In this document: positions 9,439 through 63,165 of the stretch, piece by piece
How the letters are laid out: each line of letters begins with the position of its first letter
How positions within the stretch are numbered: the stretch's first letter is position 1
NCBI GenBank assembly: GCA_048937405.1
Contig: JBHLNF010000004.1
Location: forward strand, 128,001-192,000
From: Promethearchaeota archaeon
GTDB lineage: Archaea > Asgardarchaeota > Lokiarchaeia > Sigyniarchaeales > SOKP01
Length of the DNA stretch: 64,000 bases
Direction of reading: 5' to 3'
Notes under the pieces: generated by a model
What the model saw: the letters and a program-made list of their open reading frames with translations, nothing else
Database searches by the model: none
What the model was told of the DNA's origin: nothing
Made by a program: the position numbers and the translations under genes

Positions 9439-9828
9439 TTATGTTATTGGATAACGTTTTGCAATTTCTTGAGAGTAATATCTAAAAACTTTGACAATTT
9501 TACCTAGATCTGCTGTTTGTCTTGAAGCTCCCATTAAAAAAAAACGTCCAGCGGCACTAAGAATTATAAAACCATTATCACCACGTAGAACCACCTCGAG
9601 CATATTTGTATAACCTAAAGAAGCAACAGCATCACTTCCAGATTGAACAACAACAGCACTTAAACTTGAAAAGAGATCTGGATCCAAATTATAACCAGGA
9701 ATCGCACTAAAGGCTAACCTTAAACCCTCACGGGTAATTAAAGCCAAAGCTTCAAGTTCTGAATACTCTGTTATAGAACCAAGAAAAGTACTTAAAGCAG
9801 AGGCTTCATCAGGTGTTAAGTCACTCAT
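9439..9828 (-). CDS. Roadblock/LC7 domain protein
   Basis: ALALITREGLRLAFS...LFSSLSA...EVVLRGDNGFIILSAAG...DLGKI. Confidence 0.9.
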   Translation of the reverse strand: MSDLTPDEASALSTFLGSITEYSELEALALITREGLRLAFSAIPGYNLDPDLFSSLSAVVVQSGSDAVASLGYTNMLEVVLRGDNGFIILSAAGRFFLMGASRQTADLGKIVKVFRYYSQEIAKRYPIT

Positions 9829-13570: not shown

Positions 13571-13708
13571 TGCCGGTGGAGGGATTCGAGCCCTCGAACC
13601 TCCAGAATACATCCAGTCTGACCCATTTTTTCAGAAGGATTATGAGTCTGGCGCATATTAAACATACAAATAGTATTTATGTTTTATAACCAACTAAGCC
13701 ACACCGGC
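13571..13708 (-). tRNA. tRNA-Met(CAU), elongator type, with two introns: D-arm 23/24 (13655-13684) and anticodon loop 37/38 (~13608-13640)
   Basis: Acceptor stem GCCGGTG/CACCGGC, anticodon stem CCAGA/TCTGG around CT-CAT-A, T-stem GAGGG/CCCTC. It lacks the initiator A1-U72 pair and the three G-C pairs. Confidence 0.88.
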
Positions 13709-13721
13709 AGTTTTGCTTTAA

Positions 13722-13827
13722 TGGAGCCTCAAGGGGGCTTATCATTTTCGAGCTAGATGCTCGTATATTATGATCCCCCGACCTTTGCCTTACCAAGGCA
13801 ACGCTCTACCGACTGAGCTATTGAGGC
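13722..13827 (-). tRNA. tRNA-Thr(GGU) with a 30-nt T-loop intron (~13739-13768) and encoded CCA
   Basis: Acceptor GCCTCAA/TTGAGGC, D-stem GCTC/GAGC, anticodon arm TTGCC-TTGGTAA-GGCAA, T-stem GGGGG/CCCCC interrupted by a hairpin-forming insert. Confidence 0.92.
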
Positions 13828-58614: not shown

Positions 58615-59382
58615 TTATTTACCCATTCGGCGATCTCTAGCAATAAAGTCCTTAAGATCCTCAACAACCATTTCTTTATTATAGTCCGGCCAAAATTCTT
58701 TTCGGAATTTAAATTCTGCATAAGAAGCATCCCATAACAAGAATCCTGAGATTCTAGCTCCATCATTCATGCCAGTTCTAATAATATAATCTAAAGGAGG
58801 AAAGTCTTTTGAATAGAGGTGTGATTCAATTAAATCTTTATTAACCTGTTCTGGTTTAATTCCATTACTCACAATTTCCTTCACAGCATCAACAATTTCT
58901 TCATGACCATCATACATAACGCAAAGATTAATGAAATTTTGGTCGTTATCTTTAGTAAGCTCCATTAAATCTTGAAATTTCTCCTTAACATCATTTGGTA
59001 ACATTGAAATCTTTCCAATAATATTAAATTTAACTTTTTCCTCTTTAACGATTGATTCATTTATAATGGTATCGATAGCTTTGATCATTAACTTATAAAT
59101 ATACTCAATTTCTACAGGTTTACGTTTCCTAACATTCTCTAATGATAATATATATAAACTCAAATAATGAATTCCCGCATCAAAAAAATCGAATAATCGC
59201 TTTTTAAGGTTTTCGTAGCCAATTAAATGCCCTAAATTGATTTCGAGATTCCTCTTCTTGGCCCATCTTCTGTTAATGTCTAGAAGTGGAAATCTCTTCT
59301 AAGTACCATCAATGATGAGGCCAATATGTTTGGGTAACCTTTCTTTTTCTCTTAATTTAAGTTCTTCTAGAATAGTTTGCAT
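58615..59382 (-). CDS. uppS: cis-prenyltransferase (UppS family); two exons, 59304-59382 and 58615-59273; 245 aa after splicing
   Basis: PKHIGLIIDG|NRRWAK, GH..G, LY..S.EN..R, YDG.EEI, LDYIIRTG, RISGFLLW..SYAE, WP and terminal RRMGK. The ORF track captures only the last 182 aa. Confidence 0.93.
59274..59303 (-). other. 30-nt putative BHB intron in uppS mRNA (CUUAGAAGAGAUUUCCACUUCUAGACAUUA)
   Basis: Interrupts the Asn codon of DGNRRW, contains an in-frame UAG, and its ends fall at the predicted BHB cleavage positions. Confidence 0.85.
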
Positions 59383-61530: not shown

Positions 61531-63165
61531 ATGCTTTCAGACGATTACTTATTTTCTGATATTGGAATTGATTCAATTGGTTTTTACGCGCCTAGACATT
61601 ATGTAGCTTTAAAAGACCTAGCATTAAAAAGGAGTGTAGACCCTGAAAAATATGCGAAAGGACTTCTATCAAAAGAGATGCGAGTTGCTGAAGTTGATGA
61701 GGACATTATTTCTTTAGGATTAAAGGCGGGATATAATGCTATATTAAGAGGGGGTATTTCACCAAAGAGTATAGATGCATTATTTGTGGGTACAGAAACA
61801 GAAGTATATGCAGCAAAATCAATTTCAAATATTTTTGCGGAGATGTTAGAAATCTCACCAAATGCGTTAACCCAAGATGTTTACAATGCATGTGCAGGTG
61901 GGACTTTAGCAATTCTTAATGCTATTGCGATGATTGAAAAGGAAATCATCAATAAAGCTCTTGTTATTAGTGCCGACATTTCCTCATATAATTTAGGATC
62001 TCCTGGAGAACCTACTCAAGGTTCGGGAGCAGTGGGACTTGTTATTTCAAAAGATCCCCGCATTGCTACTTTCTCTAAACGATTTGGAAAAGTATCCGGT
62101 AATGTTAACGACTTCTTTAGACCTCCAAATGACAAAAATGCAAGAGCATTTGGAAGTTATTCTCAAGAAACCTATATTGATTTTCAATTAAAAGCGTATG
62201 ATAACCTACTTGAAAATGCAGGAGATTTTCATGCTGATTTTTATACATTTCACGCTCCTTTTTCAAAATTGCCATTAAAAATAATGCAACAAATCATATT
62301 AAAGCGATGGATAAAGCATATAAGTGATTTACCTAAATTTGAAAAAAATAGATTTAGATCCTCCATTCTTAAAAAATTGGATTCATTCTTACATGATGTT
62401 ACCGTATTACCAGAATATCTTTATCTAAAATTAAATGAAAGAGGATTTTCCTCAGCAACACTAGAACGTCTTTCAAATTGGGTGAATACAAATATAAAAG
62501 CAAGAGTTCTTCCTCAATTAAGAGTACCAATGCATTTCGGCAATATGTATAATGCCAGTATCTGGGCACAGATTATTTTACTTCTTGAGAATTATGCTCA
62601 TGCTGGTGATACATTTTATTTTGGATCTTATGGTTCAGGTGCAACTTGTATTTCTGGACTTTTAAAAGTTAAAGAGAGTTTTAATGAAATAGTTCAAAAT
62701 GGACCTTTTATAAATGATTTTATTCATTTGAAGAAAAAGAAATCTGTATTAGAGTATGAGTTAGCAAAAAACGGTGATGTAAAACCGATAGTTTTATTAG
62801 GTCGTATTAGAGAGCATGAACAAAACAATGATAGAGGTTTTACCTTACATTTTTGTGATGAGGGATGTATCATACCAAACATAAAGGGATTAGATCATTG
62901 TCCTAAAGGTCACTCTGGATATCATGAACGATTCTTCCCTCTTTTTGCTAAATTGGCATCTGAACCTGTTGCTCATAATAACATTACTGATTTGAGGTAT
63001 CTGAATAAAGGATTAGTAAGAGTGGCAAACAATGTAAGTAAGGGGAATTCTTTAGAATATGAAATTAGGAGAGTTGAACTGGAATATGAGGAAAATCTCA
63101 ATGCAAAAGGTCTTTTAAACTGGACGCCTTTCTATATTAATCTCCCAAATCACCACGTTTATTGA
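61531..63165 (+). CDS. mvaS: Hydroxymethylglutaryl-CoA synthase with a C-terminal DUF35-like extension
   Basis: EDII, VGTET, YNACAGGT, GEPTQGSGAV, DFFRP, FHAPF.K, GNMYNAS and SYGSG. Confidence 0.9.
   Translation: MLSDDYLFSDIGIDSIGFYAPRHYVALKDLALKRSVDPEKYAKGLLSKEMRVAEVDEDIISLGLKAGYNAILRGGISPKSIDALFVGTETEVYAAKSISNIFAEMLEISPNALTQDVYNACAGGTLAILNAIAMIEKEIINKALVISADISSYNLGSPGEPTQGSGAVGLVISKDPRIATFSKRFGKVSGNVNDFFRPPNDKNARAFGSYSQETYIDFQLKAYDNLLENAGDFHADFYTFHAPFSKLPLKIMQQIILKRWIKHISDLPKFEKNRFRSSILKKLDSFLHDVTVLPEYLYLKLNERGFSSATLERLSNWVNTNIKARVLPQLRVPMHFGNMYNASIWAQIILLLENYAHAGDTFYFGSYGSGATCISGLLKVKESFNEIVQNGPFINDFIHLKKKKSVLEYELAKNGDVKPIVLLGRIREHEQNNDRGFTLHFCDEGCIIPNIKGLDHCPKGHSGYHERFFPLFAKLASEPVAHNNITDLRYLNKGLVRVANNVSKGNSLEYEIRRVELEYEENLNAKGLLNWTPFYINLPNHHVY

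Follow-up and report, generated by a model that had tools for sequence, protein, structure and literature searches.

Heavy interruption of tRNA genes in Asgard archaea, including D-arm introns that annotators miss, has already been described (bioRxiv 10.64898/2026.10.13.758758). That preprint and the SPLITS-type surveys cited in PMC3241643 report, for tRNA genes of Thermoproteales and Asgard archaea, multiple introns at non-canonical positions, up to three per gene, with D-arm and T-loop sites, BHB or relaxed BHB motifs, and a record of being missed by standard finders. Splicing of an archaeal tRNA-type intron from coding sequence is confirmed for essentially one gene, cbf5 (PMC2738675), whose pre-mRNA in Crenarchaeota carries a short, patchily distributed EndA-type intron in hosts with an (alpha-beta)2 EndA; a literature search returned no other published coding-sequence BHB intron besides that of crenarchaeal cbf5 (PMC2738675). 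On the enzyme side, mutagenesis has established that a Crenarchaea-specific loop confers broad substrate specificity on EndA, and the roles of its residues K44 and R46 have been described (PMC3241643). An (alpha-beta)2 EndA with an L1 loop has already been published for Asgard archaea (PMC5829648), in which this enzyme type is widespread and not predictive of intron load (preprint, bioRxiv 10.64898/2026.10.13.758758).

Here, we analyzed a window of 64,000 nt (contig JBHLNF010000004.1, positions 128,001-192,000, assembly GCA_048937405.1) from a Promethearchaeota archaeon of the Lokiarchaeia, with a genome of 4.47 Mb and a GC content of 28.9%. The window also encodes a Roadblock/LC7-domain protein (9439-9828, minus strand), a domain typical of Asgard genomes. 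All coordinates below are those of the window unless a contig is named, and the features under study are as follows:

13571..13708, minus strand: tRNA(CAU) gene, 138 nt with two introns (Rfam tRNA match of 38 bits; parse)
13655..13684, minus strand: tRNA(CAU) intron 1, 30 nt, Sprinzl position 23/24, in the 3' strand of the D stem
about 13608..13641, minus strand: tRNA(CAU) intron 2, 33 nt, in the anticodon loop
13722..13827, minus strand: tRNA-Thr(GGU) gene with one intron (partial Rfam match of 31 bits; parse)
13739..13768, minus strand: tRNA-Thr(GGU) intron, 30 nt, in the T loop at 59/60
59304..59382, minus strand: uppS exon 1, from ATG through ...IIDG, with the Asn codon broken after its first base
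59274..59303, minus strand: uppS insert, 30 nt, with an in-frame TAG and a relaxed BHB
58615..59273, minus strand: uppS exon 2, from (N)RRWAKK... to the stop codon (PF01255)

The tRNA introns of this genome resemble those of the surveys in number per gene, site, fold, and invisibility to standard finders. They differ in length, since the focal Asgard families of the preprint have medians of 22-23 nt (bioRxiv 10.64898/2026.10.13.758758), whereas 29 of the 36 introns found here measure 28 to 33 nt. They differ as well in that the same size class is also found here in protein genes. The uppS insert is comparable to the cbf5 intron, but it sits in another host gene (inside the catalytic motif DGNRRWA) and another phylum (Asgard), and is one of several such inserts within this one genome; cbf5 splicing was confirmed in published work, whereas that of uppS is predicted from sequence. 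We consider it probable that the three tRNA introns and the uppS insert are members of one genome-wide population of short BHB introns. These introns are alike in fold and in falling within a narrow size class with a median of 30 nt; they have no common sequence, and their bulges are merely A-rich. The new element is this tight 30-nt class, common to tRNA and protein genes within one lineage.

A tRNA gene pair with three introns

ARAGORN found no tRNA in the 64-kb window, and Rfam matches both of its tRNA genes only with large unaligned inserts. Once spliced, the tRNA(CAU) gene yields a 75-nt product called as tRNA-Met(CAU) by ARAGORN; it is of the elongator Met or Ile2 type, and its CCA is not encoded. 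Anticodons CGU and UGU were considered for this gene and ruled out by the discriminator A73, the orthologues, and the ARAGORN call. In the mature molecule, the variable region is 6 nt long (AGGUUC), and C occupies position 54. The neighboring gene is called as tRNA-Thr(GGU) after splicing, with CCA encoded at 13724..13722 (13827..13725 without CCA). Its mature T loop, AUCAUAG, has A54 and U58 in place of the usual U54 and A58; the same loop is uninterrupted in intron-less orthologues, and another sub-lineage has UUCAAAU.

Intron 1 of tRNA(CAU) reads GUUA-UA^A ... UAAU-AU^G and forms a good BHB, with a central helix of 4 bp, an outer helix of 2 bp, and an inner helix of more than 4 bp (a 6-bp hairpin). 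The tRNA-Thr(GGU) intron reads GGGGG-AUCA-UA^A ... UGAU-AA^G-CCCCC, in which AUCA pairs with UGAU and the T stem itself closes the BHB (H 4 bp, h 4, h' 1). Two 3-nt bulges and a 4-bp helix are thus present in both, with the predicted cuts falling behind the second base of each bulge, and scores as good as these are reached by about 0.4% of position and length combinations in the genome. Of 40 genomes sampled from the genus, 33 contain the syntenic tRNA pair, and orthologues lacking a tRNA intron are shorter by exactly the length of that intron. The D arm of tRNA(CAU) is encoded unbroken in six of them (L049, L050, L061, L064, L065, and L066) and the T arm GGGGG-AUCAUAG-CCCCC in two (L061 and L071), while L065 has a tRNA-Thr(GGU) wholly without introns. 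Because of these orthologues, two of the three junctions (D arm and T loop) are fixed without recourse to the splicing motif, and intron gain or loss must have been frequent within the genus. The remaining orthologues carry introns elsewhere in the gene, of 24-25, 27-28, 31, 34, and 43-44 nt. An earlier note made from the window sequence had placed 30-nt introns at 23/24 (bulges UA^A and AU^G) and at 59/60 (helix AUCA/UGAU, bulges UA^A and AA^G), and both descriptions agree with the parse and the orthologues.

The same note had described the second tRNA(CAU) intron as about 33 nt long, with a relaxed helix, at 37/38. Its length and relaxed BHB hold, but the position given is one of three that yield the same mature loop (35/36, 36/37, or 37/38), and the 5' bulge reads UA^A only if the cut is placed at 37/38. 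The motif is poor: the best canonical register scores 3,2,1, and the minimum free energy fold consists of a 6x4 internal loop and an inner hairpin. The intron sequence is nearly invariant across the genus. Orthologues of tRNA(CAU) are of two kinds: some share this 33-nt anticodon-loop intron and its poor BHB, and in the others a good BHB encloses an intron of 43-44 nt at 33/34.

A genome-wide size class in tRNA and protein genes

Because Rfam listed no more than 20 tRNA matches genome-wide, we wrote our own parser, which scores cloverleaf and BHB geometry, with its output validated by ARAGORN on the spliced sequences. Run genome-wide with its intron option, ARAGORN on its own reported 21 tRNAs, several of them misassigned; the gene at C7:83899-84001, called as Tyr, becomes Ala-CGC on removal of a 31-nt intron at 25/26. 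Together, parser and ARAGORN validated 30 tRNA genes, 25 of which are interrupted by a total of 36 introns (one intron in 16 genes, two in 7, and three in 2). The two genes with three introns, tRNA-Val(UAC) (G000 C25:130760-130922) and tRNA-Asp(GUC) (C7:512904-513071), have all of their introns in the range 29-32 nt; in each gene, one lies in the D arm, one in the T loop, and one in the anticodon or variable region. The census is incomplete, as about 16 expected anticodons (initiator Met, both Gln, Tyr, and several of Leu, Ser, Arg, and Pro) were missed across the whole genome by Rfam, ARAGORN, and our parser alike; disruption of the corresponding genes may go further still, through introns in the acceptor stem, for instance, or through splitting or permutation. 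Standard tRNA finders therefore leave this genome badly under-annotated.

The 36 tRNA introns have a median length of 30 nt, and 29 of them fall within 28-33 nt; the full set is 16, 19, 22, 22, 26, 28, 29 (six introns), 30 (nine), 31 (six), 32 (four), 33 (three), 37, and 60 nt. Thirty nucleotides is not simply the structural minimum, because tRNA introns of 16-22 nt also occur. Six introns lie at 36/37 to 38/39. About 30 of the 36 are non-canonical in position, at 15/16, 18/19, 20b/21, 21/22 (five introns), 23/24 (two), 25/26 (two), 28/29 (two), 30/31, 32/33 (two), 33/34, 44/45 (two), 45/46, 48/49, 58/59, and 59/60 (five), consistent with the earlier proposal that non-canonical positions are handled in this organism.

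Inserts of the same size interrupt protein genes. Including uppS, six were found, 29-31 nt long and with BHB-like flanks. The five others were located from Pfam coordinates and motif reading, and their junctions were set from conserved motifs alone: a 31-nt insert in a B12 mutase, across which profile coordinates 2-57 and 57-512 abut; 31 nt in rpo10; 31 nt in mevalonate kinase (between LFGE and HFVVYG); 31 nt in phosphofructokinase (between GILTGGG and DCPGLN); and 29 nt in RNase HII (between GIDEAG and RGSVLGPMV). That protein-gene inserts fall in the same class, at 29-31 nt, supports the interpretation in the earlier note, which saw a broad-specificity EndA as the precondition for introns spreading into mRNA. 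An ab initio scan for coding-sequence introns, in which BHB candidates of 20-45 nt had to join two open frames, gave no peak near 30 nt (930,000 candidates, 8,135 joins, 292 loci); it failed, as most joins arise at gene boundaries and, in DNA of 29% GC, the BHB threshold lets too many candidates through.

One explanation for so narrow a class is that a single mobile mini-intron was recently copied between tRNA and protein genes. The narrow size class in both gene types would suit such an element, as would its patchy distribution among species, with a UppS gene tree that requires at least three gains or losses of the insert. However, across 38 intron bodies the best pairwise local score was 11, and shuffled controls gave a mean maximum of 12; the bodies are therefore no more alike than shuffled controls and are the unrelated hairpins that the earlier note took them to be. 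Moreover, neither uppS nor either of the two tRNA genes has a nuclease gene next to it, and the 2026 preprint found no route by which tRNA introns are generally copied in Asgard archaea (bioRxiv 10.64898/2026.10.13.758758). We regard recent copying as unlikely. The lack of sequence kinship instead favors a size constraint imposed either by the process of origin or by selection. We speculate, and only tentatively, that in this Lokiarchaeial lineage BHB mini-introns of about 30 nt all arise by one process, which inserts them regardless of gene type, including into the catalytic motifs of essential protein genes.

The uppS insert as a probable spliced intron

The lipid-carrier gene uppS is present in a single copy in the genome (PF01255 profile, 188 bits), close to an HMG-CoA synthase gene (61531-63165, plus strand). 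Its uninterrupted reading, ...HIGLIIDG-T(stop)KRFPLLDI-NRRWAKK, shows that the insert splits the catalytic motif between DG and NRRWA. Removal of 30 nt restores DGNRRWA and gives a 245-aa product, the same length as that of uninterrupted orthologues. The length of 30 nt and the bulges UA^C and UA^A are those originally read from the window; with its flanks, the motif is AUGG-UA^C ... ACAU-UA^A, and in this genome it combines a central helix with 3 of 4 bp, an outer helix of 3 bp, and an inner hairpin of 7 bp.

An insert at the identical site occurs in 7 of 24 sampled congeners. In the wider genome collection, 14 of 58 species have it, at 30 nt every time, and the other 44 read DGNRRWA straight through; in the 14 species, the catalytic motif is kept across both exons with synonymous variation. 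Over 16 distinct alleles, 89% of cells in the BHB model are paired, compared to 29-62% in slid controls, and double-sided changes affect 20 cells at four pairs. Compensatory pairs include an exon-intron pair (22-53, U-A to C-G) and an exon-exon pair (19-59, U-A to G-C). None of 500 shuffles matched the observed percentage of paired cells, the double-sided changes, or the covariation score. Such a pattern indicates that the BHB fold of uppS is maintained by selection. A different candidate, a 10-bp exon-exon helix that RNAalifold places around the intron (59250-59329, minus strand, alignment A1), was rejected as not specific to intron-bearing alleles; it forms 9-10 pairs in some alleles and 4-5 in others and lies one base off the outer helix of the BHB.

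Alternatively, the insert might not be an intron at all, with uppS being a pseudogene or its stop codon being bypassed in translation, and the likeness to tRNA introns accidental. The central helix is indeed imperfect, in that 2-3 of its 4 pairs form and 66% of its cells are paired. The gene, however, is single copy and has an essential function, its catalytic motif is preserved in all 14 species, and the insert neither lengthens nor shortens while pairs 19-59 and 22-53 change in concert. In addition, synonymous exon sites complete the 3-bp outer helix in 14 of 14 intron-bearing alleles compared to 4 of 44 intron-less ones, counts that are not independent because the alleles are related. A non-intron origin is accordingly very improbable. 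Proof of the uppS intron is comparative because it draws on presence in 14 of 58 species, the constant 30 nt, and the compensatory changes.

Validity of the length class

A mode at 30 nt could in principle be produced by the parser, which rewards BHB geometry and penalizes each intron. We give this very little weight, as the parser searched intron lengths of 10-140 nt without weighting, and Rfam matches cluster at about 100-104 nt, the length expected for a tRNA with one insert of about 30 nt. Furthermore, ARAGORN validated every spliced product, and the exact differences in length from intron-less orthologues point the same way. The length signature is real and genome-wide.

Bulge sequences and the UA dinucleotide

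The earlier note had also proposed a joint signature of 30-33 nt and UA before every 5' splice site. On running the census, the length part stood and the UA part did not. Of the 36 tRNA introns, 3 have UA ahead of the 5' cut, or 4 when every equivalent junction is counted, whereas the background frequency of UA is 10.3% genome-wide and 4.6% within mature tRNA; junctions were chosen in the census with BHB scoring, which could bias bulge calls and leaves lengths unaffected. The 5' bulges of the six protein-gene inserts are UA, AA, AA, AA, AG, and AG, with UA in uppS only. Orthologues vary too: the dinucleotide ahead of the uppS cut is AA in 9, UA in 6, and GA in 1 of 16, and AA also stands there in those tRNA-Thr orthologues whose T loop is UUCAAAU. 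What regularity the bulges possess is of another kind, with A at the first bulge base in 22 and AA in the 3' bulge in 15 of the first 32 tRNA introns. Thus, that UA just 5' of the cut is an endonuclease recognition signature of tRNA and mRNA introns, a reading suggested by the four first-noted cases, all of which can be written with it, is refuted as a general rule by these counts and deserves almost no credence.

In those four cases, UA ahead of the cut is exon sequence plus chance, with no shared determinant; in tRNA-Thr, it comes from T-loop positions 58-59, and in uppS, from the wobble base of Gly and the first base of Asn. That the fold and the length are common to the introns and the UA motif is not matters for the design of searches for further introns of this type.

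Splicing enzymes and a putative route

Profile searches with PF01974 and PF02778 identified two EndA paralogues in the genome. The catalytic alpha subunit (G000 C27, 197 aa) retains Tyr, His, and Lys, and its best PDB match is the alpha subunit of Aeropyrum pernix (3P1Z_B, E = 2e-33); its INKPR aligns with VEKPR of 3P1Z_B, which corresponds to K44-P45-R46 in the Crenarchaea-specific loop. In the second paralogue (G000 C8, 200 aa), Asp replaces the catalytic His, and Tyr and Lys are kept; it is closest to the homotetramer subunit of Methanocaldococcus jannaschii. The arrangement is similar to that of A. pernix EndA (PDB 3P1Z; PMC3241643), which likewise comprises two paralogues of about 200 aa, one of them with Tyr/His/Lys, and a K-P-R loop. 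It differs in that the second subunit here is nearer the M. jannaschii homotetramer subunit and has lost only His, and in that assembly and substrate range are predicted. The pair of paralogues also fits the (alpha-beta)2 EndA with an L1 loop that is on record for Asgard archaea (PMC5829648). An RtcB gene is also present in the genome.

The enzyme of broad specificity that had been postulated for this organism is thus matched, as far as subunit type and loop predict, by the two paralogues. A further claim, that such an enzyme independently supports the uppS intron, falls. Because EndA of this type is widespread in Asgard archaea and does not predict intron load, it is a permissive background and not an explanation, and it therefore provides context for the uppS intron, not independent proof.

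We favor a single route for all four introns of the window. On this view, folding of the transcript would place both cut sites in small bulges, each next to a short central helix. Both bulges could then be cut by an (alpha-beta)2 endonuclease made of two subunits, the catalytic one bearing the Crenarchaea-type specificity loop; this enzyme would act at whatever site the motif occupies, in coding sequence as well as in the D arm, anticodon loop, or T loop of a tRNA, and RtcB would ligate the exons afterward. From the genes and motifs described above, we infer that cleavage and ligation occur in vivo and that one enzyme serves both tRNA and mRNA.

Implications

Within one genome, tRNA introns and several protein-gene inserts have one size class and one plausible enzyme. 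If a single process does create them, their uniform size and unrelated sequences would be the footprint of insertion, and close relatives of the eukaryotic ancestor would already be using the archaeal machinery of tRNA splicing to splice mRNA in general.
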